Assembly (NCBI GenBank): GCA_020633895.1 | Contig: JACKCT010000001.1 | Span: 462,130 to 526,129, forward strand | Length of the DNA stretch: 64,000 bases | Reading direction: 5' to 3' | Source of the DNA: Deltaproteobacteria bacterium | Lineage (GTDB): Bacteria > Lernaellota > Lernaellaia > JACKCT01 | In this document: positions 2-29,302 of the stretch, piece by piece | How the letters are laid out: each line of letters opens with the position of its first letter | How positions within the stretch are numbered: position 1 is the stretch's first letter | Program-made: the position numbers and the translations under genes | Notes under the pieces: model-generated | Database searches by the model: none | What the model saw: only the letters and a program-made list of their open reading frames with translations | What the model was told of the DNA's origin: nothing

Positions 2-1003
2 CACCGCCAGACGCTGCCCGAAGACCTGATGCATGGCCTCATCGACGATCTGGCCGACCTGGGCACGCAGCGCGTGCGTTTCACCGGCGGCGGCGATCCG
101 TTCGTGCATCCGAAGATGATCGAGTTTTTGGAGCACGTGAAGGAGCGGGGCATGATTGCGTGCGTGACGACGAATTTCACGTCGATCACGCAAAAGAAAG
201 TGCATCGCATGGCTGAGATCGGCGTGGACGAAATCACCGCGTCGGTGTGGGCGGGAACGCCGGATATGTACGCGCGCAGCCATCCGGCCAAGACGCAAAA
301 ATCCTTCTGGCAGATCGAGTCGTTCCTGCGCGAGCTGTGCGCCGCGAAAAAGCCCCATATGCAGGTGGTCGTCGCGAATGTGCTGTTTTCCATGAATTAC
401 ATGGAGACACGGGAGATGCTGGACTTCGCGTTGCGCGTCGGCGCGGACGGCGTGTACTACACCGTCGTCGATTCGGTCGCCAAGCCCACGGACGGTCTGC
501 TGCTCACGCCGCCCCATCTGTCGGTGCTGCGTTCCCACTTGGACGAAGTGAAGCAGCGGGTGGACGACGAAAATCAGACCCGGCCCCGGCCGTTCATCCT
601 GGACAACTTCGACGGCCTGATCCGCCGCCTGGACGCGGTGGGCGCGACGCGGGGCGACTACGACCGCCAGACCGTGGACGCCATTCCCTGCTACATCGGG
701 TGGATTTTCGCGCGCATCACGGCGGACGGTAAGGTCGCGCCCTGCTGCCGGGGATCGAACATGCCCTTGGGCGATTTGCATGAGCAGAGCTTCAAGGAGA
801 TCTGGCACGGGCATCTGTACCGGCATTTTCGTAAGATGGCTCTCAACGAAAAGAAGTCCCATCCCTTCTTTAAGCCCATACAATGTCATCGCACTTGCGA
901 TAACCTGATGCACAACGAGAACCATCATCGAAAGATGATGCGGATCACGGCGGAAGAGAAGCGACATTTGATAGATTTCGTGGTCAACGGAGGTTCCCGA
1001 TGA
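2..1003 (+). CDS. radical SAM / SPASM-type auxiliary-cluster domain protein (5'-partial, continues upstream of window)
   Basis: Frame open from nt 2; the fragment starts after the CxxxCxxC motif (FTGGGDPF glycine-rich SAM motif present). C-terminal PCC...GxL...W cysteine-rich region resembles SPASM/twitch domains and is paralogous to 6422.. N-domain and 51860..52870. Stop overlaps next start (ATGA). Confidence 0.7.
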   Translation, partial: HRQTLPEDLMHGLIDDLADLGTQRVRFTGGGDPFVHPKMIEFLEHVKERGMIACVTTNFTSITQKKVHRMAEIGVDEITASVWAGTPDMYARSHPAKTQKSFWQIESFLRELCAAKKPHMQVVVANVLFSMNYMETREMLDFALRVGADGVYYTVVDSVAKPTDGLLLTPPHLSVLRSHLDEVKQRVDDENQTRPRPFILDNFDGLIRRLDAVGATRGDYDRQTVDAIPCYIGWIFARITADGKVAPCCRGSNMPLGDLHEQSFKEIWHGHLYRHFRKMALNEKKSHPFFKPIQCHRTCDNLMHNENHHRKMMRITAEEKRHLIDFVVNGGSR

Positions 1004-1968
1004 GCCGCCGCGTGCTCATCACCGGCGGCGCCGGCTTTATCGGCCACCACCTGTGCCGACGAATGTTGGCGGACGGCTATGAGGTGGGCGTCATCGACAA
1101 CGAGGCCACGGGACGTCGCGAGGACGTGCCCGAGGGCTGCGACTATCTCAAGGGCGACGTGCGCAACCTGGATGACCTGGCCCGGGCGTTCGACCCGGCG
1201 CCGGATGTGGTGTTTCACACCGCCGCCCAGGCGAGCAACATTCGTAGCTTCGACAATCCGCAGGAGGACATGGCCGTCAATCTGCTGGGCACGATCAACG
1301 TGGTCACGAAGTGCCTGGAGCTCAAGGTACCCAAGCTGGTCTATGCCAGCTCCATGACGGCGTACGGGATGATGAACACATTGCCGGTCAACGAACAGAC
1401 GCCCTTGGCGGCGATCTCCTATTACGGCATCGGGAAGGCCGCGGCGGAGAGATTCGTGCTGGCGACGGCGGCGCGGCCCGATCTGAAATCGCCGTTTTCG
1501 GCGACGTGCTTTCGCATGTTCAACGTCTACGGCCCCGGGCAGAGCCTGAGCAATCCGTACCAGGGCGTGCTGGCGATCTTCATCGGCAATGTCATGCGCG
1601 GTGAGCCCTGCCGGGTCGACTCGGACGGGGAGCAGACGCGGGATTTCGTCTACGTGGACGATGTGGCCGAGGCTTGGCGCCGGGCCGCGCACGTGGGCAA
1701 GGCGGATAATCTGGCGGTGAATCTGGGGTCGGGGAAGCAGATCAGCGTGAACGGTTTGGTCCAGGAGACCTGCCGCGCCTTGGGCGTCGATCCGGCGACG
1801 TATCCGTTCAATCATGCGCCCGAACGCCCCGGCGACCAGCGCCATGCCCAGGCCGATGTGGCTCTGGCCAAGAAAGTGCTGGACTGGGAGCCCACGGTCG
1901 ATTTTCCCGAAGGACTCAAACGCACCGTCGCGTGGGCCAAGGACAACGCGGGCGGGGAGGCGGCTTAA
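1000..1968 (+). CDS. NAD-dependent epimerase/dehydratase (GalE/UDP-sugar epimerase family SDR)
   Basis: N-terminal VLITGGAGFIGHHL Rossmann motif; YxxxK-type extended SDR layout over 322 aa; start ATG overlaps upstream stop, stop TAA overlaps next ATG (TAATG). Confidence 0.85.
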   Translation: MSRRVLITGGAGFIGHHLCRRMLADGYEVGVIDNEATGRREDVPEGCDYLKGDVRNLDDLARAFDPAPDVVFHTAAQASNIRSFDNPQEDMAVNLLGTINVVTKCLELKVPKLVYASSMTAYGMMNTLPVNEQTPLAAISYYGIGKAAAERFVLATAARPDLKSPFSATCFRMFNVYGPGQSLSNPYQGVLAIFIGNVMRGEPCRVDSDGEQTRDFVYVDDVAEAWRRAAHVGKADNLAVNLGSGKQISVNGLVQETCRALGVDPATYPFNHAPERPGDQRHAQADVALAKKVLDWEPTVDFPEGLKRTVAWAKDNAGGEAA

Positions 1969-3056
1969 TGAGCCAGTTCATGTCCGCCATTGAAAGCCAG
2001 TTGATGAACTTCAAGGCGTTCCGCCCGTTCTTCACGCCCGGCCGGGTGCTGCGCGACGCGGTGACGTTCCCGAAGGACTATTACCTGGGCGACGGCAAGA
2101 CGACGCGCTTTCCTTCGATCATCAACCTGAACATCACCACCGTATGCAATCTGAAATGCCCCTTCTGCTTCAACATGGACATCCTCGGCAAACGCACCGA
2201 ACTGTCCACCGAGCAGATGGAGGACATCGTCGATCAGGTCGCGGCGAACCGGGGCGGGCTGTTCCTCTCCGGCGGCGAGCCCTTCGCCCGCAAGGACATC
2301 TTCGAGATCATTGAACACGCCAAGTCCAAGGGCGTGCCCGTCGGTGTCGTCACCAACGCCACGCTCTTCACCCGCGAGAAGGTGCAGCGCCTGTACGACA
2401 TCGGCCTGGACGTGGTCGTCATCAGTTTCCACGGCACCGAGGAAGCCCACGACAAGGCCGTCCTGATGAAGGGCGCCTACAAGAAGACGTTGCAGGCCCT
2501 CAAATGGTTCGCGGAAATCTTCCCGTCGCCGGGGCCGATGATCAACTACGTCCTCACCGAGCACTCGATTCCCCATATGTCGGATTTCTTTAAGGAAATC
2601 GGTGATATCCCGAATGTCGCCAAGCGCCTGTCCCACCTGAATTTCGTGACGCCGGACGAGGCGAAGGCCAACGAGACTTATTGGATGGAGAAGTTCGGCG
2701 AGGCGCCCCAGTTGCTGCAGTACGAGTACCACCCGTCCGACCGGATGTACGAGCCCATCATCCAACAGCTCGAACGCAATCCCGAGATCTTCACCAAGCC
2801 TGTCATCAATCGGGAAGAAATGAAGACCTGGTACTCGGATCGCTTCGATCTCAAGCGCCGGTGCGTGTTTATCTGGAAGTCCACGTTCATCAACTCGGAC
2901 GGGGATATGTACCCTTGTCAGTTCCTGATGATGAAGATGGGCAACATCAAGGAACATTCCATCGAGGAGCTGTGGAACGGGGAGAAATACCGGCGATTCC
3001 GCGCCCTTTTGCGAGAAGGTCTCACGCCCGGTTGCGCCCGCTGCTGCAAGCTTTAA
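1968..3056 (+). CDS. radical SAM protein with C-terminal SPASM-like cysteine-rich domain
   Basis: CNLKCPFC (Cx3Cx2C) at N-terminus, LSGGEPF SAM-binding motif, C-terminal YPCQ...GNIKEHSIEELW...GCARCC cluster. Confidence 0.75.
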   Translation: MSQFMSAIESQLMNFKAFRPFFTPGRVLRDAVTFPKDYYLGDGKTTRFPSIINLNITTVCNLKCPFCFNMDILGKRTELSTEQMEDIVDQVAANRGGLFLSGGEPFARKDIFEIIEHAKSKGVPVGVVTNATLFTREKVQRLYDIGLDVVVISFHGTEEAHDKAVLMKGAYKKTLQALKWFAEIFPSPGPMINYVLTEHSIPHMSDFFKEIGDIPNVAKRLSHLNFVTPDEAKANETYWMEKFGEAPQLLQYEYHPSDRMYEPIIQQLERNPEIFTKPVINREEMKTWYSDRFDLKRRCVFIWKSTFINSDGDMYPCQFLMMKMGNIKEHSIEELWNGEKYRRFRALLREGLTPGCARCCKL

Positions 3057-4784: not shown

Positions 4785-6422
4785 ATGCCGCGTATGGGTT
4801 TTGAAAAGCGACGACGCACGCCGCCGCAGGACGCCGACCGGGCCGCCGGGGGCGTGGCGCGCGTGTTGAAGATCGCCGATGACGAGGGCGTGCCGGTCGC
4901 CGAGACCCCCCCGGACATCCTGCTGTTCTCGCCGCCGCCTTGGCTGGTGACGGGCCCGCCGCTGGGTTTGGCCGCCGTGTCGGCGTACCTCAAGGCCCAG
5001 GGCTGGCGGGTCAAGATCATCGACGGCAACACCAAGGCCTACCACGACGCCAAGCCCAAGGATCAACTCCTATGGCGTTGGGAATATTCGGCGTTTTGGG
5101 AGGACGAGGCCGAGGTGGAGAAACGCTTCGGCGCGATGCTGCGCCGATTGGCCGAGGAAGCCGCGGCGGTCGGATCCTGGGCGATCGGCGTGAACGTGGT
5201 GCATCGCAAGGAGGCGGCGGTGGCCATCTTCCTGCGACGCCTCAAGGAGCTTCGACCGGACCTGCGCATTTTCGTCGGCGGACCGGGAGCGGGTTGGAAG
5301 GAATCCCGCGATCACCTGCGCGAGCTGGCCGGGGACCTGGTGGACGGCTTCGTGGTGGGCGAGGGCGAGGTCGTCTGCGACGAACTGCTGCGACGCATGC
5401 GCAAGGGTGAGAGCCTGGAAAACCTACCCGGATTCATGATCGCCGGGCCCGACGGCGAGGCGAAGTTCAAGCCGGGGCGCGTGATCCTGGACATGAACAA
5501 GCTGCCCGTGCCCGATTTCGGCGACTTCGAAATGGAGCACTACGACGACAATTCCCTGGTCGTGGAATGGAACCGGGGATGCGTCGCGCGATGCACCTAT
5601 TGCTCGGTCAACGACTTCTGGAACGCGTTCCGCTTCAAGGGCGCCAAGGCCGTCGCCCACGAACTCAAGACCCTCCACGACCGCCACGGCATCGAGAAAT
5701 TCGTCATCGTCGACCCCATGGTCAACGGCAACCCCGAGCACCTGGACGCCATCTGTGAGGCGATCATCGAGTCGGGGGTGAAGGTGCGTTGGTCGGCGGG
5801 CATCTCGCCCAACCGGGACGTGCCCAAGTCGACCTTCGTGAAGATGTCGGCGGCGGGGTGCTACCAACTCGAGTTCGGCGTGGACTCGGGATCGAACAAG
5901 ATCCTTCGCAAGATGGGCAAGCGCTTCAAGGCCGACCAGGCCGGACGCATGATGCGCGACGCCCACAACGCCGGCATCGACGTGATGCTCTACCTGATCG
6001 TCGGTTTCCCCGGCGAGACCGACGAGACCGTGCAGGAGACCATCGACTGGCTCGACGAGTACGGCGAGTCCATCGACATGGTGCGTTCGATCAATAGCCT
6101 GACCATCGAGGACGGCACGGCGGTCGAGCAGCGTTCCGAATTGTTCGGCGTGGAGAAGGACAAATCGGACGTGAACTGGCGCGACAACTGGCACGAGTCG
6201 GGCAGCTCGCCCGAGATGCGCAAGGCCCGGGTGGATCGGGTGATCGACAAACTCAAGGAACTGAAAATCCCCATCGAAGCCGAGATTATCGCCGAGCAGA
6301 CCGCCGGCGAGGATGGACCGACACTGCCCGACTGGGGCGGGGCCACGCAGTCCGCCGGACCGAGCGCCGGCGCGGGAACCTTCGGCTGCGCGTCCTTCCC
6401 CACGACGGGTGACGAGGGCTGA
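4785..6422 (+). CDS. B12-binding domain radical SAM protein (class B rSAM, stand-alone module)
   Basis: N-terminal cobalamin-binding-like region ILLFSPPPWLVTGPPLGLAAVSAYL...VKIIDGN; rSAM core VVEWNRGCVARCTYC (Cx3Cx2C); stop TGA overlaps start of next gene (TGATG). Same module architecture as the four repeats inside 6422..14053. Confidence 0.8.
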   Translation: MPRMGFEKRRRTPPQDADRAAGGVARVLKIADDEGVPVAETPPDILLFSPPPWLVTGPPLGLAAVSAYLKAQGWRVKIIDGNTKAYHDAKPKDQLLWRWEYSAFWEDEAEVEKRFGAMLRRLAEEAAAVGSWAIGVNVVHRKEAAVAIFLRRLKELRPDLRIFVGGPGAGWKESRDHLRELAGDLVDGFVVGEGEVVCDELLRRMRKGESLENLPGFMIAGPDGEAKFKPGRVILDMNKLPVPDFGDFEMEHYDDNSLVVEWNRGCVARCTYCSVNDFWNAFRFKGAKAVAHELKTLHDRHGIEKFVIVDPMVNGNPEHLDAICEAIIESGVKVRWSAGISPNRDVPKSTFVKMSAAGCYQLEFGVDSGSNKILRKMGKRFKADQAGRMMRDAHNAGIDVMLYLIVGFPGETDETVQETIDWLDEYGESIDMVRSINSLTIEDGTAVEQRSELFGVEKDKSDVNWRDNWHESGSSPEMRKARVDRVIDKLKELKIPIEAEIIAEQTAGEDGPTLPDWGGATQSAGPSAGAGTFGCASFPTTGDEG

Positions 6423-9400
6423 TGCACGCCCACGACGCCAAGAAGACGATTCTGTCGCCGGAACACCTGATGATCCAGACGACATCCCGGTGCAACTCGG
6501 GGTGCGTCATGTGTCCTTGGCCCGACACCGCCTCCGCCCAGCCCCAGGGCGATATGTCCGACGCCCTTTACCGACGCATTGTCGACGAAGTGCGCGAGTT
6601 TCCCGATCTGTCGCGCATCATGCTCTACCTGATGAACGAGCCCCTGCTCGACAAGAAGCTGCCCGAGCGCGTGAACCTGATGCGCAAGGCCCGGCCGTAC
6701 GATGAAATCTACATCGTCACCAACGGCCTTCTTCTCGACCGGGACTTGGGCGACCGGCTGATCGACTCGGGCCTGTCGTGGCTGTCGATCTCCATCCACG
6801 CCCTGGAACCGGCGACCTACGAGAAGATCACCAAGCGCAAGGACTGGGCCAAGCGCCGCGAGCCGATCGAGCGATTCATCGACCGGGCCATGGCCGCTCG
6901 GGGCGAGGACTTCGTGCAGATCAACATCACGAAGGTGCGCCCCCATATTTCCGACGAGGAATACAACGCCGCCGCCGAGCACTGGCGTTCGCTCGGTGTC
7001 CAGCGCGTCGATCTGGACGACGGCTATATCTCCCGCGCGGGCAATGTGGAGGTCTTCGGCCACCAGCGCCTGTCGACGCGCCGCACCAGCGGATGCAAAA
7101 CCATCTGGGCGTACAAGATGGCCCACGTGCTCTACAACGGCGACGTGCTGCCGTGCTGCATGGACTGGCGGCGCAAGGCGGTGTTCGGCAATGTGGAGCG
7201 CGACGGCGGCCTGCTTAACGTCTGGCGGGGCCAGGGGCGCCACGGCTTCCTGGACAAACTGGGTTCGGGCGACGAGTTGCCCGAGGACTTCCTGTGCGTG
7301 GGCTGCGAGGACGCCATCCCCGCGGAGGGCGCGGAGACGGTCGTCATCAACGAAGCCAAAAGCCCGCCGCCGCCGAAGAAAGCCGCCGTGCCCGTCAAGT
7401 TCGTCTCCAAGTCGGAAGCGGCGGTGACATACGCCGACGGCACTTCCGTCGCCGCGAGCGAGACCATCGTCCTTGCCGCCGCCCCGACCCCGGCCAAGGC
7501 GAACGGCCATTCCAACGGCAGTTCTAACGGCAGTTCCAACAGCAGCGCAAACGGCCATGACAACGGCGCGGCCGCCTTCGACACCGGCAGTTCGAATCCG
7601 ATCATCGCGACCTACGACGCCGCCGTCGACGAGAGCTTCCGCAAAGGCGGTCGCGAGACCGAGCCGACGGATTTTTCGAAGGGCGAGGTGGATGTCGTCT
7701 TCTTCGCGCCGCCGCCGTGGCTGACCAGCGCGCCGCCTCTGGGCTTGGCGTCGATCACCGGCTTCCTGCGCAAAATGGGCTGGCGAGTGAAGGTCGTGGA
7801 CGGCAACGTGCGCCTGTATCATTTCGCCGGGAAGACGCACCAGAACCTGTGGGACTGGGAGCGCGGGCCGTTCTGGGAGAAGTACGACAACGTTGCGGGC
7901 GTCTTCGGCGAAGAATTGCGCAAGATGGCCCGGGAAGTCGCCGAACTGCGGCCGAGCGTGGTGGGCGTGAACTGCGTCTCGCGCAAGGAAGTGGCCTTCG
8001 CGATCTTCCTGGACGAACTCAAAAAGCACCACCCGGAATGCAAAGTCTTTATCGGCGGGTCGGGTATCGGCCACTTCGAATTGCGTCGCCATGTGCGCAG
8101 CATCGTTCGCGACTACATGGACGGGTTCCTGGTCGGCGAGGGCGAGCTGATGATGCACAAGGTCCTCACGCGCATGCGCGACGGACGGACCTATGACGAC
8201 ATCCCCGGCGTGGCGACGTACGTCTTGGAAACCAGCGAGGAGATCTTCACGCCCCAGGAGGAGACGCCGGACCTGGGCATCCTGGCGCCGCCCGACTACA
8301 CCGATTTCGATCTGTCGGCCTATTCGTCGCCGAGCCTTATCGTCGAGTGGAGTCGCGGGTGCGTGGGGCGGTGTACATTCTGCAATATCAACGACCTGTG
8401 GAAGAAGGTGCGTGTCAAGGCGGCCGAGCAGGTCGTCGAGGAGATCAAGACTCTCCAGACCCGCCACGGCACCGAGTATTTCTCCGTCGTCGATCCCATG
8501 ACCAACAACGACGTGGACACCCTGGAAGCCGTTTGCGACGGTCTGATCCGGGAGAAAATCCACATCAAGTGGTCGTGCGGCATGTCGCCCAATCGGCGCC
8601 TCACCGCCGAGCAGTTCCGCAAGATGGCTGCCGCCGGGTGCTATCGCGTGGAATACGGCGTCGAGTCCGGTTCGGACACGGTGCTCAAGCGCATGGGCAA
8701 GGAATACAAGGCCGAAGTGGCCGAACAAATGATCCGTGACGCTCACAACGCGGGCATCATGGTCGTGCTATATTTGATCGTCGGTTTCCCCGGAGAGACG
8801 GAAGAGGACCTTCAGCAGACGATCGCGTTCCTGGAACGCAACGCGAAATACATCTCGCTGGTGCGCAGCGTGAACGGGATGGTCATCATCCACGGCGCGC
8901 CGGTGGAGCGAAAGCCCGAGGTCTTCGGCATCGGCGAGTTGGACCGGCTGGAGGACGGCTGGACCAACCGCTGGAGCGCCGGGGACAACACACCCGAGCT
9001 TCGGACCGAACGGGCGGCGCGGGTGACACGGAAGTTGAACGACCTCGGCATCCCGGTCGAGTTCGAGAATGTGGAAGAGGTTATGCCCAACGCGATGCTC
9101 TACGACAAACGCATGGACCAGACCAAGGAGCGCTTGGCCGCCGTCGAGAAGGATCTGAACGATCTGCTCGGCCTGATGGACAAGCTGATGCGCGGCGAGC
9201 CCACGCGGCAGGTGGTCGGCCACGACCAGTTGGCGTTGGTGCTCTGTCCCGTTTGGGGGGTCGACTCGCCGCCCCTGGGGTTGGCGGCCATGGCGGGCTT
9301 TGTGCGCAATCAGGGCTACGAGCCGATGGTGATCGACTTCAACATCGAACTGTTCCACAAGGCGAACGAAAAGCAAAAACCCTTCTTCGAGGAAGACTCT

Positions 9401-12400
9401 TTCCGTCATTGGACCGACGAGGCCGGCGCCGCGAAAATCGTCGCCGCCTTCACCAAGGAGATCGACGAGCTGGTCGACCGGCTCATCGACTCGGGCCGCA
9501 GCATGATCGGCTTCACGATCTATTCGGCCAACCGCTTGTTCGCCAAGGAAGTCATGCGGCGCATCAAGGCCCGCGATCCCAAACGCGTCATCGTCGTCGG
9601 CGGCCGGGGCGCCCACACGAAAAACGAGCGCCTGCTCTTCCCTCGCGATCTGGTCGACTACTTCATCGTGGGCGAGGGCGAGACGTCGCTGATCCCGTTG
9701 ATGGAGGAAGTCTTCGCCGGCAAATCGGGCCAAGGGCTGCCGGGCGTGGACACCTACGACGGATTCGAACTCACCGGCTACGAGCCGCGCCCGCGCCTGC
9801 ACGACCTGACGCTTCTGCCGCCCCCGGCGTACGACATGCTGCCGCTGGACCTGTATCGCGGCGACGAGATCCCCGTGCAGTTCTCGCGGGGGTGCGTGGC
9901 TCATTGCACCTTCTGCAACGACTCGCACAAGAACACGGGCTTTCGTTCCCGGCCCGGCAAGCACATGGCCGCCGAGATCAAGCAACTGGTCGAAGTCACG
10001 GGACGCAAGCGTTTCCGCTTTAACGACCTGCTGATCAACGGCAACCTGGAAGTGCTCGAGGAGTTGTGCGACGAGCTGATCGCCATGGACCTGGGCATCA
10101 AGTGGATCGCCCTGTTCCAGCCTCGCGGCGACATGAAGGACGAACTGCTTTTCAAGATGGCCAAGGCCGGATGCTACACGGTCAACATGGGCGTGGAGCA
10201 CGGCTCGACGCGCATCCTGAAGATCATGGGCAAGGGCTTCAAGGTCGCCGACATGGAGCGGGCGCTGCGCCAGACGCGGGCGGCCGGCATCAACACGATG
10301 CTCAATTTCATCATCGGCTATCCCGGCGAGACGCGGGAGGATGTCGACGAGACCATCGACTTCATCCGACGCAATCGCGAAAACATCTGCGGCGTCACGT
10401 CGGTCAACGCGTGCATCCTGCTTGAGGATTCGGCCATCGAACGCCGCGCGATCAAGCTGGGCGTCACGTACGACGACTATGCGACGCGGGACGTGAACTG
10501 GGTCCTGGGCGACAACACGCCCGACGAGCGCCAGGCGCGTCTGCGTAAGTTCGTGGAGTTTTTGGAAGCCGAGAACATTCCGTACCTGGTCACGAATCTC
10601 AAGGAACGCGCGGCGAACCTGGACGACCTGTCCATCGACGACATCGCCGCCGCGCCGGCCAACGGCGCCTCCAACGGTGAAACGCACGCCGTTCCCGGCG
10701 AATTGACGAATGTCGATCCCGAGCAGTTCGAATCGGTGGACGGTTTCATCCAAACCCGCGAGACCGGGTCGAACATCGCCGCCTACGCGACGCACGGCGA
10801 CCTGGGCGGCGGCCACGCCGAGGACGACGGCTTTGATCCGGCCAAGGGCGAGCCGCGATGGGAGGTCATTCCCACGGACTACGCGGACGTCATCTTCATC
10901 AAGTGTCCCCCCTGGGGCGTGGACGTCCCGCCGCTGGCCATTGCCTACCTGTCCGAGATGTGCCGCCAGGACGGCCTGAAGGTGCAGGCGGTCGACCTGA
11001 ACGTGAAGGTCTACAACCGCTGTCACGATCGCGGCCTGTGGGATATGGACCGCTACGCCGAGTGGGCCGACCCGAAATTCTTCCCCAAGACCTACAAGGA
11101 TTTGTGGGAGTGGACCGGGCACTACCTCAAGCAGATCGCCGAACATCCCGCGCCGGTCATCGGCCTGTCCACCAACACGGCCAACTACCGCTTCACCGTC
11201 GAGACGGCCCGCCGCCTCAAGGAGATGGCGCCGGAGAAGACCATCGTCATCGGCGGCACGGGTATTTCCAACAGTTTCGACGTGGAAGAACTCACGCCCA
11301 CCGACGCGGACTACCTCTTTTTCGGCGAAGCGGACATGGGCATCGCCAAGTTCGTGCGGGCCGTCGTGGACAAAAAAGATCCGGGAGACATCGAGGGCCT
11401 GATCAAGGTCGGCACCGAGTTTACTTACAGCTCGGTGCAGCGGGCGATTGTCGAGAAGGGCCTGAAGGTCGCCAACCCGACGATGATCGAACTGAACCTG
11501 AACGAGTACAGCTCCTCGGCCGTGCCGCTGCTGGCCAGCCGAGGATGCGTACGCCGATGCACCTTCTGCAACGACCATCAGATCTATCAGAAGTACCGTT
11601 ATCGCGAGGCCGAGGACGTGTTCAAGGACATGGAGTGGCACGTCAAGAATCGCGGCACGTCCCACTTCGCTTTCCTGGACCTGCTGCTCAACGGCAACAT
11701 GAAGACCCTCGTGGGTTTCTGCGATCTGGTCATCGAATCGGGCTACAAGGTGGCCTGGGGCGGGCAATGCATCGTGCGCAAGGAGATGCGCGCGGACGTG
11801 TTGCAGAAGATGGCCAAGGCCGGGTGCATGAGCATCGTGTACGGCATGGAGAGTTTCTCGGATGAAACGCTCAAGCTCATGCGCAAGTACTACACGCAGG
11901 AGTTGGCCAAGCGCGTCCTGACCGACACGAAAGAGGCGGGCATCGAGCCGATCATCAACATCATCTGCGGCTTCCCCGGCGAGACCGAGGAAGACTTCAT
12001 GCAGACCTACAACTTCATCAAGGACAATCCGGACATCGTCGGCCAGGTGGCGTCGGTGTCGCCGTGCCTGATCAACCTGGGTTCGGAACTGTTCGATCGC
12101 TACAAGGATTTCGACATCCGCTTCCCCGAGGAAGACGGGTCGGTCAAGTGGTACACGGGTGATAAGTCCAACACCTACGACATCCGGCTGCGTCGGGTGA
12201 TGATGATTACCGAGCTTCTCGCCAGCCGCGACAAGCACATCCACACGGTTAACATCTACGACAACGACGACAAAAAGGTCATGCGCGCCCGAGACGACAA
12301 GGCACGCTTCGACCGGGCCGTCGCGTCGGGTGGGTCGTTGCTCGGGGCGCCGCTGGTGGACGGGTCATCCCGCGCGGAGGCGGGGGAGTCGCCGGGAAAA

Positions 12401-14053
12401 TCTGAGACCGATGTCGCGGCGGCGGCGGCCTCGGTCGAGAATGCGCTGCCGCAAGTCGCCGTTCCGCAAAATGGAGCGCCGACGGTCGAAATCCACGCGC
12501 CGGGCACGAACGGCCATGCGAACGGTTCGACAAACGGCCACGCCAATGGTCGAACAAACGGGCACGGTAACGGCGTTGGCCAGCACCACATCGAGGACGT
12601 CGCGCCGGTGCAAAAGGCCGACATCGTTCTCGCGCTGCTGCCGCCTTGGGGTGTGAATTTCCCGCCGCTGGGTATCGCCAGCCTGGCCGCGTCGGCGCGG
12701 GACGCGGGCTTCAGCGTTTACGCCCGGGACATGAACATCGAGTGCTTCGATTATTGCGGCGAGTACCTGCGTTCCTGGTGGGAGCCGGAAAACCTCAAGT
12801 ATTGGTCGCCGGGCAAGCGTCTGGACGAAGTCTCCGCGTTCATCATGCCCAAGATCGACGCCTTCATCGAGGACGCCATCCGCCGCCGCCCGCTCGTGGT
12901 CGGCCTGTCGACGAACGAATCGAACCTGACCTTCTCCACCCGCGTCGCCAAAAAAATCAAAGAGGCGCTGCCCGATTGCAAAATCATGTTGGGCGGGCCG
13001 GGGGTGGCGTGGCCGGCGGATCGGCAAAAACTCGTCGGCGAGGCCTTCGACGCGTGCATTATCGGCGAGGGCGAGGACAGCCTGAACCAGGTGCTGACCA
13101 AGATGAAGGCCGGTGAGTCGTTGGACGATGTGAGCGGCCTGGAGTGGCTTTCCGGCGAGATCAAGAAGATTCCCGACAAGGGCGATCTGGTCAAATCGCT
13201 GGACGACCTGCCGCTGCCGCTGTTCGACGAGTTCCCGCTGCATATGTATCAGACCAAGCAGTTCCCGCTGATGATCGGCCGGGGTTGCACCAACCGATGC
13301 ACTTTCTGCAACGATCCGCAGATCACCCCGAAGTATCGCTTCAAGTCGCCCGAGCGCGTGCTCGACGAGGTGATGGCCTACAAGGAGCGCTACGACGCCC
13401 ACGACTTCCACTTCTGCGATCTGCTCATCAACGCCCACATCCGCAACCTGCGTGACTTCGCCCAGATGGTCGTCGACAAGGGCGTGCGCATGGCGTACTC
13501 GGGGCAGGCGCTGATCAAAAAACAGATGGACGACGAAACGCTGCGTATCATCGCCAAGTCGGGATGCACCAGCATGGTCTTCGGCGTGGAGAGTTTTTCC
13601 GATCGCGTGCTGACCGACATGCGCAAGGGCTATACGGTGCAGCAGGCCAAGGAATGCATCGAGCGGGTGCATAACGCGGGGATCAAGGTGATCGTCAATC
13701 TGATCGTCGGCTTCCCGACCGAGACGGAGGTGGAATTCCAGGAGACGATCGATTTCCTACGCGAGAACCACGGCCTCATCGATTCGATCTCGGCCCTGTC
13801 GGCGTGCATCGTGACGGCGCAGTCGGATCTGGAGAAGAATCCGGACAAATACGGCATCGTCCTGCCCAAGCCCGAGCATTGGTGCCAGTGGTACTCCAAG
13901 GACGGCGCCAACACCTACGACGTGCGCCAGGAACGGCTCTATCGCATGCTCGACGTGCTCAATGAGTTGAAAATCTCCCACGGGATGACGAATCGTTATT
14001 TGGAGATGATCGACGAGCGCCAATCGGAAGGTGAGCAACCGGCGGCCCATTGA
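6422..14053 (+). CDS. giant (2543 aa) multi-domain radical SAM fusion protein: SPASM-type rSAM domain + four tandem B12-binding rSAM modules
   Basis: Single uninterrupted 7.6-kb ORF. Domain 1 (nt ~6422-7320): TSRCNSGCVMCPW + LPCCMDWRRK...LCVGCE SPASM-like. Modules 2-5 begin at ~7689, ~9229, ~10885, ~12620, each with (F/L)xPPPW/PVWG..PPLGLA B12-like N-terminus and RGCxxxCTFCN rSAM motif (IVEWSRGCVGRCTFCN, VQFSRGCVAHCTFCN, LLASRGCVRRCTFCN, LMIGRGCTNRCTFCN). Inter-domain linkers are Asn/Gly/His/Ser-rich (NGHSNGSSNGSS..., NGHANGSTNGHANGRTNGHGNG). Confidence 0.7.
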   Translation: MHAHDAKKTILSPEHLMIQTTSRCNSGCVMCPWPDTASAQPQGDMSDALYRRIVDEVREFPDLSRIMLYLMNEPLLDKKLPERVNLMRKARPYDEIYIVTNGLLLDRDLGDRLIDSGLSWLSISIHALEPATYEKITKRKDWAKRREPIERFIDRAMAARGEDFVQINITKVRPHISDEEYNAAAEHWRSLGVQRVDLDDGYISRAGNVEVFGHQRLSTRRTSGCKTIWAYKMAHVLYNGDVLPCCMDWRRKAVFGNVERDGGLLNVWRGQGRHGFLDKLGSGDELPEDFLCVGCEDAIPAEGAETVVINEAKSPPPPKKAAVPVKFVSKSEAAVTYADGTSVAASETIVLAAAPTPAKANGHSNGSSNGSSNSSANGHDNGAAAFDTGSSNPIIATYDAAVDESFRKGGRETEPTDFSKGEVDVVFFAPPPWLTSAPPLGLASITGFLRKMGWRVKVVDGNVRLYHFAGKTHQNLWDWERGPFWEKYDNVAGVFGEELRKMAREVAELRPSVVGVNCVSRKEVAFAIFLDELKKHHPECKVFIGGSGIGHFELRRHVRSIVRDYMDGFLVGEGELMMHKVLTRMRDGRTYDDIPGVATYVLETSEEIFTPQEETPDLGILAPPDYTDFDLSAYSSPSLIVEWSRGCVGRCTFCNINDLWKKVRVKAAEQVVEEIKTLQTRHGTEYFSVVDPMTNNDVDTLEAVCDGLIREKIHIKWSCGMSPNRRLTAEQFRKMAAAGCYRVEYGVESGSDTVLKRMGKEYKAEVAEQMIRDAHNAGIMVVLYLIVGFPGETEEDLQQTIAFLERNAKYISLVRSVNGMVIIHGAPVERKPEVFGIGELDRLEDGWTNRWSAGDNTPELRTERAARVTRKLNDLGIPVEFENVEEVMPNAMLYDKRMDQTKERLAAVEKDLNDLLGLMDKLMRGEPTRQVVGHDQLALVLCPVWGVDSPPLGLAAMAGFVRNQGYEPMVIDFNIELFHKANEKQKPFFEEDSFRHWTDEAGAAKIVAAFTKEIDELVDRLIDSGRSMIGFTIYSANRLFAKEVMRRIKARDPKRVIVVGGRGAHTKNERLLFPRDLVDYFIVGEGETSLIPLMEEVFAGKSGQGLPGVDTYDGFELTGYEPRPRLHDLTLLPPPAYDMLPLDLYRGDEIPVQFSRGCVAHCTFCNDSHKNTGFRSRPGKHMAAEIKQLVEVTGRKRFRFNDLLINGNLEVLEELCDELIAMDLGIKWIALFQPRGDMKDELLFKMAKAGCYTVNMGVEHGSTRILKIMGKGFKVADMERALRQTRAAGINTMLNFIIGYPGETREDVDETIDFIRRNRENICGVTSVNACILLEDSAIERRAIKLGVTYDDYATRDVNWVLGDNTPDERQARLRKFVEFLEAENIPYLVTNLKERAANLDDLSIDDIAAAPANGASNGETHAVPGELTNVDPEQFESVDGFIQTRETGSNIAAYATHGDLGGGHAEDDGFDPAKGEPRWEVIPTDYADVIFIKCPPWGVDVPPLAIAYLSEMCRQDGLKVQAVDLNVKVYNRCHDRGLWDMDRYAEWADPKFFPKTYKDLWEWTGHYLKQIAEHPAPVIGLSTNTANYRFTVETARRLKEMAPEKTIVIGGTGISNSFDVEELTPTDADYLFFGEADMGIAKFVRAVVDKKDPGDIEGLIKVGTEFTYSSVQRAIVEKGLKVANPTMIELNLNEYSSSAVPLLASRGCVRRCTFCNDHQIYQKYRYREAEDVFKDMEWHVKNRGTSHFAFLDLLLNGNMKTLVGFCDLVIESGYKVAWGGQCIVRKEMRADVLQKMAKAGCMSIVYGMESFSDETLKLMRKYYTQELAKRVLTDTKEAGIEPIINIICGFPGETEEDFMQTYNFIKDNPDIVGQVASVSPCLINLGSELFDRYKDFDIRFPEEDGSVKWYTGDKSNTYDIRLRRVMMITELLASRDKHIHTVNIYDNDDKKVMRARDDKARFDRAVASGGSLLGAPLVDGSSRAEAGESPGKSETDVAAAAASVENALPQVAVPQNGAPTVEIHAPGTNGHANGSTNGHANGRTNGHGNGVGQHHIEDVAPVQKADIVLALLPPWGVNFPPLGIASLAASARDAGFSVYARDMNIECFDYCGEYLRSWWEPENLKYWSPGKRLDEVSAFIMPKIDAFIEDAIRRRPLVVGLSTNESNLTFSTRVAKKIKEALPDCKIMLGGPGVAWPADRQKLVGEAFDACIIGEGEDSLNQVLTKMKAGESLDDVSGLEWLSGEIKKIPDKGDLVKSLDDLPLPLFDEFPLHMYQTKQFPLMIGRGCTNRCTFCNDPQITPKYRFKSPERVLDEVMAYKERYDAHDFHFCDLLINAHIRNLRDFAQMVVDKGVRMAYSGQALIKKQMDDETLRIIAKSGCTSMVFGVESFSDRVLTDMRKGYTVQQAKECIERVHNAGIKVIVNLIVGFPTETEVEFQETIDFLRENHGLIDSISALSACIVTAQSDLEKNPDKYGIVLPKPEHWCQWYSKDGANTYDVRQERLYRMLDVLNELKISHGMTNRYLEMIDERQSEGEQPAAH

Positions 14054-14070: not shown

Positions 14071-14143
14071 TTCAGATCCGCGACCGTCAGGGAGCGGGTT
14101 GCCGCGACGAACTAACCCGCTTGCTGACGCGCGCGGTTCTGAA
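14071..14143. repeat. REP-like imperfect palindromic intergenic repeat, family A (short 73-bp form)
   Basis: TTCAGAtCCGCGACCGTCAGGGAGCGGGTTG...CAACCCGCttgctgaCGcgCGCGGtTCTGAA; the same unit recurs at 41286..41358 and in longer forms at 21969, 46924 and 48431; sits between convergent gene ends. Confidence 0.5.
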
Positions 14144-14158
14144 GCGACGAGACCGCCG

Positions 14159-14542
14159 CTAACTCCCCATCATCCTTCCCAGCAAAATCCCCAGCGCGCC
14201 CGCGCCCAGGCCGAAGAACAGGTTTGCGCCGATGTTGCCCAGCGCAACGCCCGGCTTGCCGATCTGCACGAAATGCAGCGTCTCGTAGCTGAAGGTGGAG
14301 AAGGTCGTGAACGCGCCGAGGAAGCCGACGGTGACGGCTGTTTTCATGTCGATGGGCATCAATTCCTTGCCCGCGATGGACGCGGCGAGGATGAAGGCGA
14401 GGATGAACGAGCCGACCACGTTGACGATCAGCGTGCTCAAGGCAAGCTTGCCTTCGAAGGCGGTGTAGGCCCATTTCCCGACGCCGAAGCGAGCCAGGGC
14501 GCCGGCCGCGCCGGCCAGGGCAATGTAGACATAGAGCATCAT
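14159..14542 (-). CDS. crcB: fluoride ion channel CrcB/Fluc
   Basis: Approx. 127 aa, four TM segments, GFLGAFTTFSTFSYE signature typical of CrcB; start chosen at MMLYVYIALAG rather than the upstream alternative-start extension. Confidence 0.8.
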   Translation of the reverse strand: MMLYVYIALAGAAGALARFGVGKWAYTAFEGKLALSTLIVNVVGSFILAFILAASIAGKELMPIDMKTAVTVGFLGAFTTFSTFSYETLHFVQIGKPGVALGNIGANLFFGLGAGALGILLGRMMGS

Positions 14543-14651
14543 CGTCACATCCCGCGTTGCACGTAAAGCCAGCCTAAACGTCCGCGACCGATCCGCCAAG
14601 ACCCGCCGCGAAGGCGTTTGACGCTCGGGTGATTCTCGCTAAATTAACGTC

Positions 14652-16034
14652 ATGGCAAACTCATCCCAGACTTTCGATGTTGTCGTCGTTGGCGCCGGTA
14701 CGGCCGGGGCGGCGGCGGCGTATCATTTCGCGCGCACGGGTCGACGCACCGCGCTTGTGGATCGAGGCAGCATGGAGGCGGCGGGGGCGCGATGGGTCAA
14801 CGGCGTGTCGCCTTGGATGTTCGAAATGTCCGGCATCCCGCTGCCCGAGGGCGAGGAAATCCGCGCCGCGGATTTTGCCGTGTCCATTCAGAACGCCTCG
14901 CGCACCAAACGCATGGATATCCGCCGGTCGCCCCTGTGGAATATCGATATGCGTCTGCTGGTGGCGCGACTGCATGCCTTGGGCCGGGGGCAGGGGGTCG
15001 CGTTTTTTCCGAGCATGGCGTTGTCGGACCTCGAATTCGACGGCGATCGCCCCGTGGCGGCCAATATGGCGACGCAAGACGGCGCGACGGTTCGTTTTGA
15101 GGCCGGGCTGTTCGTCGATGCTTCGGGCCTATCCGGAGTCTTGCGAACGCGCGTGCCCGCGTTGGCGTCGGCGTGTCCCATGCCGGAACGTATCGACCTG
15201 TGCGACGCGGCTCAGCAGGTGCGTCGGGTGTTGGATCACCGGGCGGCGGAAGCGTGGCTGAAAAAGCGCGGTGTTCGCGCGGGCGAGACCGTGTCCTATC
15301 TGGGTGTCGACGGCGGATTTTCCACACTCAATGTCGAGGTGGATTTCGACGAGTCGACCGTGGAGTTGCTGACCGGCACGATCGCGACGGACGACTACAA
15401 ACCGGGCTTGCAGCTCATCGAGGAATTCGTCGCCGAGCACGAGTGGATCGGGGAGGAGGTCTTCGGCGGCTCGGGGCTCATCCCCTTGCGGCGGCCTTAC
15501 GATCGCTTCGTGTCGCCGGGCGCCGCGCTGATCGGCAACGCGGCTTGCCAGGTGTTCCCGGCCCACGGCAGCGGCATCGGCACCGGCATGATCGCCGCGA
15601 AAATGCTGGCGGAGGCGTGCGAAGGTGTCGAGGACGTGGGCGCGCTGGGGCCGCTGTGGGAATATCAGGCGACGTTCATGCGGTCCATCGGCGCGACCAA
15701 CGCGGCTTACGACGTCTTTCGCAAACTCTCGCAGCGTATCGGCAGTAGTGAACTCGAACAGCTCGTCGGCTCGCCCCTCATGCCCGCCGTCACCACCATT
15801 GCCGCCCTCGACCAACGCATGCCCAAACTCGGGCCCGTGGATCTGGCGAAAATGGCCGCCGGGGCCTTGCAGCATCCGGGCCTGGTTTTCAAGATGCTCC
15901 CCACCGTGATGCGCATGAACACCGTCTATGCCCACTACAAGCTCTATCCCAAGGAGCCGGACATGGACCGCCTCGCCGCCTGGGCCCGCCGTGCCGATAA
16001 GCTCGTCGGCCCCACGCCGACGCATCGGGCATAG
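14652..16034 (+). CDS. FAD-dependent oxidoreductase (geranylgeranyl reductase-like / FAD-binding monooxygenase family)
   Basis: N-terminal DVVVVGAGTAGAAAAYHFAR GxGxxG dinucleotide fold, 460 aa; ATG at 14652 diverges from crcB. Confidence 0.65.
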   Translation: MANSSQTFDVVVVGAGTAGAAAAYHFARTGRRTALVDRGSMEAAGARWVNGVSPWMFEMSGIPLPEGEEIRAADFAVSIQNASRTKRMDIRRSPLWNIDMRLLVARLHALGRGQGVAFFPSMALSDLEFDGDRPVAANMATQDGATVRFEAGLFVDASGLSGVLRTRVPALASACPMPERIDLCDAAQQVRRVLDHRAAEAWLKKRGVRAGETVSYLGVDGGFSTLNVEVDFDESTVELLTGTIATDDYKPGLQLIEEFVAEHEWIGEEVFGGSGLIPLRRPYDRFVSPGAALIGNAACQVFPAHGSGIGTGMIAAKMLAEACEGVEDVGALGPLWEYQATFMRSIGATNAAYDVFRKLSQRIGSSELEQLVGSPLMPAVTTIAALDQRMPKLGPVDLAKMAAGALQHPGLVFKMLPTVMRMNTVYAHYKLYPKEPDMDRLAAWARRADKLVGPTPTHRA

Positions 16035-16103: not shown

Positions 16104-16176
16104 CAGTCCCAACGGGAATCGAACCCGTGTTTTCGGCGTGAGAGGCCGACGTCCTAGGCCGCTAGACGATGGGACC
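16104..16176 (-). tRNA. tRNA-Glu (anticodon CUC)
   Basis: Minus-strand sequence GGTCCCATCGTCTAGCGGCCTAGGACGTCGGCCTCTCACGCCGAAAACACGGGTTCGATTCCCGTTGGGACTG closely matches the canonical bacterial tRNA-Glu cloverleaf; anticodon loop CUCUCAC gives CUC; TTCGATT T-loop. Confidence 0.7.
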
Positions 16177-16265: not shown

Positions 16266-16336
16266 TTCAGGGACTAGGATTCGAACCTAGATAACAGGAG
16301 TCAGAGTCCTGGGTCTTACCATTAGACGATCCCTGA
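16266..16336 (-). tRNA. tRNA-Gln (anticodon CUG)
   Basis: Minus-strand TCAGGGATCGTCTAATGGTAAGACCCAGGACTCTGACTCCTGTTATCTAGGTTCGAATCCTAGTCCCTGAA: 7-bp acceptor stem TCAGGGA/TCCCTGA, D-stem GTCT/AGAC, anticodon stem CAGGA/TCCTG with loop CUCUGAC, T-arm CTAGG-TTCGAAT-CCTAG; U-start typical of tRNA-Gln. Confidence 0.7.

Positions 16337-27517: not shown

Positions 27518-29302
<1,785 letters not shown>

Follow-up and report, generated by a model that had tools for sequence, protein, structure and literature searches.

A conserved single-chain protein with five radical SAM domains from Lernaellota, encoded in an operon with an O-carbamoyltransferase

The stretch of DNA analyzed here (the window, 64,000 nucleotides (nt)) comes from an assembly labelled Deltaproteobacteria bacterium (GCA_020633895.1, contig JACKCT010000001.1, positions 462,130 to 526,129 of the forward strand), whose GTDB lineage is Bacteria; Lernaellota; Lernaellaia; JACKCT01. 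One of its genes encodes a conserved enzyme that carries five independent radical S-adenosylmethionine (rSAM) active sites on a single chain. The N-terminal twitch rSAM domain is called D0 below, and the four B12-binding rSAM modules that follow it are M1 to M4 in N- to C-terminal order (B in architectures). L-numbers denote fetched loci of relatives, and P-numbers denote related proteins from the database search. The domains of this enzyme come from known families; their arrangement in one chain and the glycan-type setting of the gene are new. An earlier note on this DNA, made without database searches, knew of no characterized multi-rSAM fusion of this kind, and the literature, two 2026 reviews included, yielded none. 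No account of three or more rSAM domains in one chain, or of B12-rSAM chemistry on surface polysaccharides, turned up in the literature searched. The architecture is unmentioned in the 2026 review of B12-dependent rSAM enzymes, in the 2026 review of lipid-modifying rSAM enzymes, and in the paper that named Lernaellota.

The start codon of the giant gene overlaps the stop codon of the upstream gene by one base (TGATG). Across the whole protein, Pfam finds five Radical_SAM stretches (E = 2.8e-112), four B12-binding stretches (E = 3.3e-49), and one SPASM stretch. When the five domains are scanned singly, Radical_SAM (PF04055) scores are 67.4, 97.5, 76.8, 74.0, and 100.6 bits from D0 to M4, all above the gathering score of 29.5 bits. 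Each domain has an intact CxxxCxxC motif, at residues 24 (CNSGCVMC), 647, 1158, 1709, and 2289, the latter four in the form RGCxxxCTFCN. The earlier note had placed the module starts at nt 7689, 9229, 10885, and 12620 (residues 423, 937, 1489, and 2067), which match the domain boundaries derived here (Table 1). Its count of four complete B12-binding modules also stands, but their length is about 460–510 amino acids (aa) plus linkers, not the ~550 aa that it gave.

Translation, base composition, and orthologs all confirm a single uninterrupted open reading frame (ORF). The fraction of G and C at third codon positions (GC3) is 0.78–0.89 in each of the eight segments, the three low-complexity linkers among them, so that one frame is coding from end to end. 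M1 to M4 share 30–32% pairwise protein identity and have no meaningful DNA similarity, so that neither recent duplication nor the collapse of a repeat can account for them. Among 5.8 billion proteins searched, 24 matched, and 22 of these are giants of 2266–2742 aa with the same Pfam set and 27–59% identity, drawn from NCBI, ENA, JGI, and Logan assemblies. P0001 is a 100% identical partial copy from a separate NCBI metagenome-assembled genome (MAG) labelled ‘Deltaproteobacteria bacterium’, in a contig that begins inside the gene; an exact-sequence look-up of the giant protein gave no identical full-length entry. A further 12 loci came from a scan of GTDB species representatives; all belong to uncultured MAGs, two of which carry the label fen_1099 / FR-FEN-1099. 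P0012 belongs to Candidatus Lernaella stagnicola (phylum Lernaellota). Public databases already contain more than 20 orthologs, under no other annotation than ‘radical SAM protein’.

The possibility that neighboring rSAM genes were joined by mis-assembly or a sequencing frameshift, for which the earlier note had asked a check, is very remote. Of the fetched loci, 15 contain the gene in full, and in 14 of them, which differ in sample, assembler, and sequence source, it is an uninterrupted ORF of 2297–2779 codons. The exception, L013 (= L019), which belongs to a FR-FEN-1099 MAG, is what an artefact would have in its favor: its region is made up of four overlapping ORFs of 324, 1143, 639, and 473 aa (L013:10001-17229; from 14813 in L019), with frame changes exactly in the D0–M1, M2–M3, and M3–M4 linkers. 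This split is either a true gene fission or a product of frameshift errors in repetitive linkers, and it marks the same domain boundaries either way. An artefact is contradicted by uninterrupted orthologs in more than 15 independent metagenome assemblies, by the identical partial copy P0001, by a GC3 that stays high and uniform through the linkers, and by the conserved length of the M1–M2 junction (11–16 aa).

Conservation extends over the whole chain. Essentially all of the ~20 orthologs retain the five CxxxCxxC motifs, and when 19 orthologs are aligned, invariant residues are dense in each of the five domains. Across orthologs, identity is 52–58% between modules at the same position and 29–34% between modules at different positions. 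Thus, the order of the four modules predates the divergence of the lineages that carry them, and the separate constraint at each position argues for four different jobs rather than redundancy. The earlier note had suggested a ‘processive or multi-site’ machine. Multi-site or multi-step action fits these position-specific modules, but nothing bears out ‘processive’.

D0 is a BtrN-like twitch domain with a SAM cluster and one auxiliary [4Fe-4S] cluster. Its Pfam scores are 67.4 bits for Radical_SAM and 35.5 bits for SPASM, the latter spanning profile positions 3–52 of 67. Among PDB sequences searched with phmmer, BtrN (4M7S) is the best match (E = 3.7e-12); the alignment, at 18–21% identity, takes in the SAM-cluster half as well as the Cys-rich half, with PCC(M/F)(D/E) and CxxC among the aligned motifs. 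The AlphaFold (AF2) model of D0 has a predicted local distance difference test (pLDDT) score of 84 and a predicted template modeling (pTM) score of 0.85. With this model, Foldseek also places BtrN first (4M7T, E = 5e-10, TM score 0.71 on the target), followed by SkfB, CteB, DesII, SuiB, MoaA, and BlsE. Only five C-terminal cysteines are conserved in D0 (C225, C245, C246, C292, and C295), and they align with the four BtrN auxiliary-cluster ligands. The seven-Cys motif of SPASM domains, which hold two auxiliary clusters, is absent from D0, and five conserved cysteines indicate a single auxiliary cluster; the SPASM label of the earlier note is accordingly replaced by that of a twitch domain. BtrN, the 2-deoxy-scyllo-inosamine dehydrogenase of the butirosin pathway, likewise has a single four-Cys auxiliary cluster and acts on a carbohydrate or cyclitol, as D0 would. 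By analogy, D0 may oxidize a secondary alcohol of an aminocyclitol or sugar to a ketone as BtrN does. Unlike BtrN, D0 is fused to four further enzymes and has an extra invariant cysteine. The orthologs have Cys-Cys at residues 245–246 (nt 7154-7159) where BtrN has Cys-Phe, so that C246 lies beside a ligand cysteine. Speculatively, C246, which is dispensable as a cluster ligand, could serve as a hydrogen-atom donor as in rSAM epimerases.

M1 to M4 are best described, from their sequences and a model of M1, as anciently diverged modules with the predicted fold of cobalamin-dependent (class B) rSAM enzymes. Each has the core motifs GxE(S/H)xS and G(F/Y)PxET, invariant in 19 orthologs, and all B12 modules have a W...NT..R..R signature near the C-terminus. 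The AF2 model of M1 (pLDDT 90, pTM 0.87) matches TsrM, MgmA (9CCB), OxsB, AprD4, CysS, and TokK best in Foldseek, over its full length (~450–500 columns), at 15–18% identity to any solved enzyme. Sequence searches of the modules against solved structures return the same set (M4 finds TokK, MgmA, OxsB, and CysS), and the best solved sequence relative is MgmA, a protein glutamine C-methyltransferase (PDB entry 9CCB). Among NCBIfam models, the best matches are C- and P-methyltransferase families (TIGR03975, ApyD, and PhpK), followed by TIGR04072, BchE, HpnJ, and BzaD. TIGR03975 (‘RiPP maturation radical SAM C-methyltransferase’, where RiPP stands for ribosomally synthesized and post-translationally modified peptide) gives M1 to M4 158.2, 133.1, 126.9, and 153.4 bits and the upstream paralog 139.3 bits, all short of its cut-off of 281.85. 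It is the best model for M1, M3, M4, and the upstream paralog, whereas M2 matches ApyD best (140.5 bits). The ApyD, PhpK, TIGR04072, HpnJ, and BchE models give at most 152 bits, against cut-offs of 360–750. The four modules are probably C-methyltransferases.

The linkers differ in character. That between M1 and M2 is short and constant, and the other three vary in length. Imperfect 24-nt tandem repeats, similar to each other, lie in the D0–M1 linker (7502-7567) and the M3–M4 linker (12509-12573); their unit (AACGGCCAYxCCAACGGY...) encodes NGHxNGSx. Each variable linker of the window protein is the longest or near-longest among orthologs, and together they account for most of its extra length, which suggests that repeat expansion is behind them.

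The giant gene closes a run of plus-strand genes that is cut by the window start (Table 1). Among the 15 loci with readable upstream sequence, 14 have a carbamoyltransferase gene upstream of the giant gene, and it is directly adjacent except in the window and L001, where an extra B12-rSAM gene lies in between. In L002, L004, L005, and L006, the carbamoyltransferase gene even extends four bases beyond the start codon of the giant gene. The encoded enzyme is a full-length homolog of GdmN (E = 3e-63), NovN (E = 2e-55), and TobZ (E = 1e-46) in the PDB; with the NodU equivalog model it scores 117.7 bits, against a cut-off of 1000. The search for the architecture returned orthologs from uncultured MAGs with a carbamoyltransferase as their conserved neighbor. 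The intervening gene of the window was held in the earlier note to be a paralog of all four modules. It is related to them, but specifically of M1 type: its product has a mean identity of 42–43% to M1 orthologs and of 27–30% to the other positions. This stand-alone paralog is seen only in the window, L001, and L007. Downstream, a convergent CrcB fluoride-channel gene (14159-14599, minus strand) indicates that the giant gene is the last of the operon; no fluoride riboswitch reaches the Rfam threshold in the window. A 155-aa ORF (14099..14566, plus strand) was considered as a precursor or carrier and rejected, as it has no family match and its opposite strand encodes CrcB.

Table 1. Features of the giant rSAM gene and of the genes upstream of it, in window coordinates.
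Feature	Position (nt)	Strand	Evidence or remark
3' end of Carbam_trans_N-rSAM-SPASM fusion gene (rSAM-SPASM part), cut by window start	2..1003	+	fusion 906-939 aa in L001, L004
NAD-dependent NDP-sugar (nucleoside diphosphate sugar) epimerase/dehydratase, 322 aa, GalE-like	1000..1968	+	below NCBIfam cut-off
rSAM-SPASM protein, 374 aa	1932..3056	+	Pfam; weak PDB matches SkfB, PqqE, BlsE, BtrN, DesII
O-carbamoyltransferase, Carbam_trans_N + Carbam_trans_C, 567 aa	3066..4769	+	Pfam 115.4 and 187.3 bits
Stand-alone B12-binding rSAM gene, 545 aa, M1-type paralog	4785..6422	+	46% to M1, 26-33% to M2-M4
Giant ORF, D0 + four B12-binding rSAM modules	6422..14053	+	2543 aa, ATG start, no internal stop
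D0, aa 1-300, BtrN-like rSAM domain + one auxiliary-cluster (twitch) motif	6422..7321	+	Pfam, BtrN match
D0 CxxxCxxC, aa 24-31	6491-6514	+	motif
Linker D0-M1, aa 301-425, low complexity (P/A/S, NGH/NGS repeats)	7322..7696	+	15-126 aa in orthologs
M1, aa 426-925, Rossmann (B12-type) + rSAM core + C-terminal domain	7697..9196	+	Radical_SAM 97.5, B12-binding 29.1 bits
M1 CVGRCTFC	8360-8383	+	motif
Linker M1-M2, short, length-conserved	between M1 and M2	+	11-16 aa in orthologs
M2, aa 940-1400	9239..10621	+	Radical_SAM 76.8, B12-binding 53.3 bits
M2 CVAHCTFC	9893-9916	+	motif
Linker M2-M3, aa 1401-1488	10622..10885	+	35-89 aa in orthologs
M3, aa 1489-1950	10886..12271	+	Radical_SAM 74.0, B12-binding 46.2 bits
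M3 CVRRCTFC	11546-11569	+	motif
Linker M3-M4, aa 1951-2066	12272..12619	+	21-121 aa in orthologs
M4, aa 2067-2543	12620..14050	+	Radical_SAM 100.6, B12-binding 59.3 bits
M4 CTNRCTFC	13286-13309	+	motif

Two kinds of locus can be told apart. Type A loci (the window, L001, L004/L008, L009, L010, and L013) have the full window-like set, in which the rSAM-SPASM gene at 1932..3056 is syntenic; those that reach far enough also have an upstream fusion of glycosyltransferase (GT) and rSAM parts (GT4-GT1-rSAM-SPASM) and a separate Carbam_trans_C gene. In L008, a 3-deoxy-D-manno-octulosonic acid (Kdo) transferase gene (WaaA) and an ArnT-like PMT_2 gene lie directly upstream. Type B loci (L002, L005, L006, L011, and L014-L017) have only the pair of carbamoyltransferase and giant gene, with MBOAT and GDSL genes 1–10 kb away. 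Homologs of the first gene of the window are mostly stand-alone proteins of ~390 aa, and on long contigs their genes are found in loci arranged as Wzm, Wzt(+Wzt_C), phosphodiesterase, GT, GT4-GT1-rSAM-SPASM, rSAM-SPASM, and two epimerases. Near these Wzm/Wzt cassettes are further rSAM genes, fusions of B12-rSAM modules to GT2, a heptosyltransferase gene, and Wzy_C. A distant relative with six rSAM domains, P0023, sits in such a Wzm/Wzt-type locus (L003). Fusions of a B12-rSAM module to a GT2 glycosyltransferase are encoded in the Wzt-type glycan loci at L003:22745-25117 and L020:16023-18539.

From these homologies and neighborhoods, the giant protein is somewhat favored to be a multi-active-site tailoring enzyme for a sugar-derived substrate, coupled in its operon to the O-carbamoyltransferase. 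The strongest argument for a glycoside is that rSAM domains are fused to glycosyltransferases and to a carbamoyltransferase half. The substrate would be a sugar-derived molecule on the cytoplasmic side, most likely a lipid-linked envelope glycan resembling lipopolysaccharide (LPS) or O-antigen, or a glycolipid. D0 would abstract a carbinol hydrogen and then oxidize or epimerize the sugar position, like BtrN. Each B12 module would perform its own regiospecific step, most likely C-methylation of an unactivated sp3 carbon. In this class B cycle, cob(I)alamin and SAM would form methylcobalamin; a second SAM would then yield a 5'-deoxyadenosyl radical that abstracts hydrogen, and the substrate radical would take the methyl group from methylcobalamin. 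The carbamoyltransferase would next O-carbamoylate the product, capping a hydroxyl. Tethering would keep the five catalysts in fixed stoichiometry and could let intermediates pass between neighboring sites. A more specific proposal, tentative and rather doubtful, is that the chain works as an ‘assembly line’ without carriers, whose radical enzymes install varied C–C (methyl) and redox modifications on a lipid-linked surface glycan that is then exported. It could then be the founding example of a widespread family of two- to six-domain rSAM fusions that build heavily C-branched sugars in uncultured phyla.

Several points weigh against this carbohydrate reading or narrow it. M2 to M4 exceed the gathering score of B12-binding (PF02310; 32.1 bits), but M1 falls just below it (29.1 bits). 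AprD4, which is among the fold matches of M1, has the class B fold and binds no cobalamin, so that the fold by itself does not prove cobalamin use. No universal cobalamin-ligand motif exists, and no cobalamin riboswitch was found in the window. Class B enzymes also catalyze ring contractions, cyclizations, and other chemistry, so that methylation is only the commonest outcome. All NCBIfam scores are far below the curated cut-offs, and the modules therefore belong to no named family. The functional steps are all deduced from homology and neighborhood. Type B loci, about nine in number, have no glycosyltransferase nearby, and the link to LPS comes from one locus (L008) and from more distant relatives. 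The window cluster is cut at its 5' end, which is why no Wzm/Wzt genes are visible in the window.

The same chemistry could instead serve a diffusible glycoside or cyclitol natural product, similar to an aminoglycoside, moenomycin, or novobiocin, with a different product class and role. The solved enzymes closest to D0 (BtrN) and to the carbamoyltransferase (GdmN, NovN, and TobZ) all belong to antibiotic pathways, AprD4 is among the module matches, and type B loci lack polysaccharide export genes. GenK and GenD1 are sugar-acting B12-rSAM C-methyltransferases, and moenomycin biosynthesis pairs the carbamoyltransferase MoeM5 with a putative B12-rSAM methyltransferase, MoeK5. However, none of the annotated loci has exporter, resistance, or regulator genes of the antibiotic-cluster type, and related cassettes have WaaA, ArnT-like, Wzm/Wzt, Wzy_C, and heptosyltransferase genes as neighbors. 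The giant gene is moreover a syntenic core gene across many MAGs labelled FEN-1099/Lernaellota or ‘Deltaproteobacteria’, a pattern that resembles envelope biogenesis more than an accessory metabolite, and a natural product is unlikely.

Two further substrates, peptides and lipids, were weighed on the basis of the same matches. As a RiPP maturase, the protein would C-methylate many peptide residues in the manner of PoyB/PoyC (polytheonamide), with D0 as a peptide-modifying twitch/SPASM domain. TIGR03975 is the best NCBIfam match for four of the five B12 domains tested (127–158 bits; ApyD for M2), MgmA methylates a protein, and SkfB, CteB, and SuiB are among the fold matches of D0. These scores are well under the cut-offs (281.85 and 750), though, and cover only the generic B12 and rSAM core. 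Small ORFs of 25–130 aa were compared over 17 loci, and none beside the giant gene is shared by at least three of them. Protease, RRE/PqqD, lanthipeptide-type, and peptide-exporter genes are listed in no neighborhood, and the neighbors are sugar enzymes; a peptide substrate is improbable. Equally little speaks for tailoring of membrane lipids, that is, methyl branching, cyclization, or cross-linking of acyl or isoprenoid chains, as with hopanoid methylases, ladderane-type enzymes, or rSAM enzymes that modify glycerol dialkyl glycerol tetraethers (GDGTs), and the chance of it is small. Such a role would fit the module matches to TIGR04072 (lipid biosynthesis B12/rSAM; 76–113 bits), HpnJ (75–113 bits), and HpnR, and the MBOAT and GDSL acyl-transfer genes near type B loci. 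A geranylgeranyl-reductase-like gene at 14652..16034 was also considered as a lipid clue but rejected, being separated from the giant gene by the convergent CrcB and absent from all six annotated ortholog neighborhoods. No locus has squalene-hopene cyclase, fatty-acid, polyketide, or ether-lipid genes, and the conserved partners of the giant gene are instead a carbamoyltransferase, a glycosyltransferase, and a sugar epimerase.

Tandem fusions with two to six rSAM domains exist, and the architecture of the window protein is not unique in kind. An exhaustive HMMER search with residues 1–1200 found 1607 cluster representatives at E <= 1e-30, and the best 150 of these 1607 were classified with local hidden Markov models. 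Single modules (B, 70 representatives) and pairs (B-B, 39) predominate in this set, followed by D0-B (9), D0-B-B (8), B-B-D0 (5), D0 alone (5), B-D0 (4), B-B-B (3), and D0-B-B-B-B (2); D0-B-B-B, B-B-B-B, B-B-B-D0, and D0-B-B-D0 occur once each. Given this tally, the window protein is among the largest of a combinatorial set rather than a one-off. Nor are five domains the maximum, because P0023 (L003:9890-18226, plus strand), read from an upstream ATG rather than from the database start, is a protein of 2778 aa with six CxxxCxxC motifs, laid out as D0, four B12 modules, and a C-terminal rSAM-SPASM domain. L022 (L022:1-24824, 25 kb) encodes a B-B-B-B protein (2096 aa) alongside eight other rSAM genes, which brings the total to about 12 rSAM domains; GT2, GT1, a 3'-phosphoadenosine 5'-phosphosulfate (PAPS)-reductase-like gene, and a phosphodiesterase of the same family as in the Wzm/Wzt loci are also present. 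Elsewhere, one B-B protein adjoins another B-B protein and three rSAM-SPASM genes.

Known systems match parts of the giant protein. TokK, CysS, MgmA, and TsrM (class B) combine, like M1 to M4, a Rossmann (B12) domain, an rSAM core with CxxxCxxC, and a C-terminal domain. Known class B methyltransferases have one module per chain, and TokK and CysS methylate several times by iterating a single site; the giant protein, in contrast, fuses four different, position-conserved modules to a fifth rSAM domain. FbiC, a fusion of CofG and CofH, is the textbook chain with two rSAM domains that act on one pathway. It has two domains rather than five (six in L003), neither of them cobalamin-dependent, and shares no sequence relationship with the giant protein beyond the superfamily. 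TobZ, NovN, and GdmN, the full-length homologs of the conserved upstream partner, and the MoeM5/MoeK5 pair are single-domain enzymes of actinomycete antibiotic pathways, and no phosphoglycerate-lipid or aminocyclitol genes are present at the giant loci. MoeK5 is mentioned in PMC12931638. Closer in gene context are Wzm/Wzt O-polysaccharide loci, where related cassettes (GT4-GT1-rSAM-SPASM, rSAM-SPASM, epimerases, and B12-rSAM-GT2) lie between Wzm/Wzt(+Wzt_C) and Wzy_C, heptosyltransferase, or Bac_transf genes. To our knowledge, no rSAM or cobalamin chemistry occurs in characterized O-antigen pathways. The rSAM clusters of Elusimicrobia and the giant proteins of Omnitrophota were considered as parallels and set aside, the former because they are tied to nitrogenase paralogs and the latter as a different phenomenon.

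If the carbohydrate reading holds for an envelope glycan, the giant protein would provide the first case of cobalamin-dependent rSAM chemistry on a bacterial envelope polysaccharide. The neighborhoods suggest that envelope glycans are tailored by radical, cobalamin-dependent reactions, so far undocumented for polymers of the LPS/O-antigen type, and unusual C-methylated, carbamoylated sugars would be predicted in candidate phyla such as Lernaellota. Class B rSAM enzymes are one of the largest enzyme blocks of unknown function and are hard to study singly. A chain with an expected demand of about six [4Fe-4S] clusters and as many as four cobalamins represents a natural wiring of rSAM catalysts, and could serve as a system for dissecting how consecutive radical steps are ordered, how specific they are, and how cofactors move among them. 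Together with the fusions of two to six domains, loci that encode about a dozen rSAM domains speak for a wider, unexplored biosynthetic logic.

Other features of the window lie apart from the giant gene. Two tRNA genes (16104-16176 and 16266-16336, minus strand) are located between the geranylgeranyl-reductase-like gene and a 603-aa ORF without a family match. That ORF (16410-18221, minus strand) and the 974-aa ORF next to it (18218-21142, minus strand) have almost no family signal, apart from one PD40 repeat in the larger; their high GC3 indicates that both are probably real genes. Further along, a thiamin pyrophosphate (TPP) riboswitch (27527-27643, plus strand, 55.2 bits) lies directly upstream of thiC (27635..29302), followed by thiG and a ThiH/BATS-type rSAM gene, and this region is an ordinary thiamin operon.

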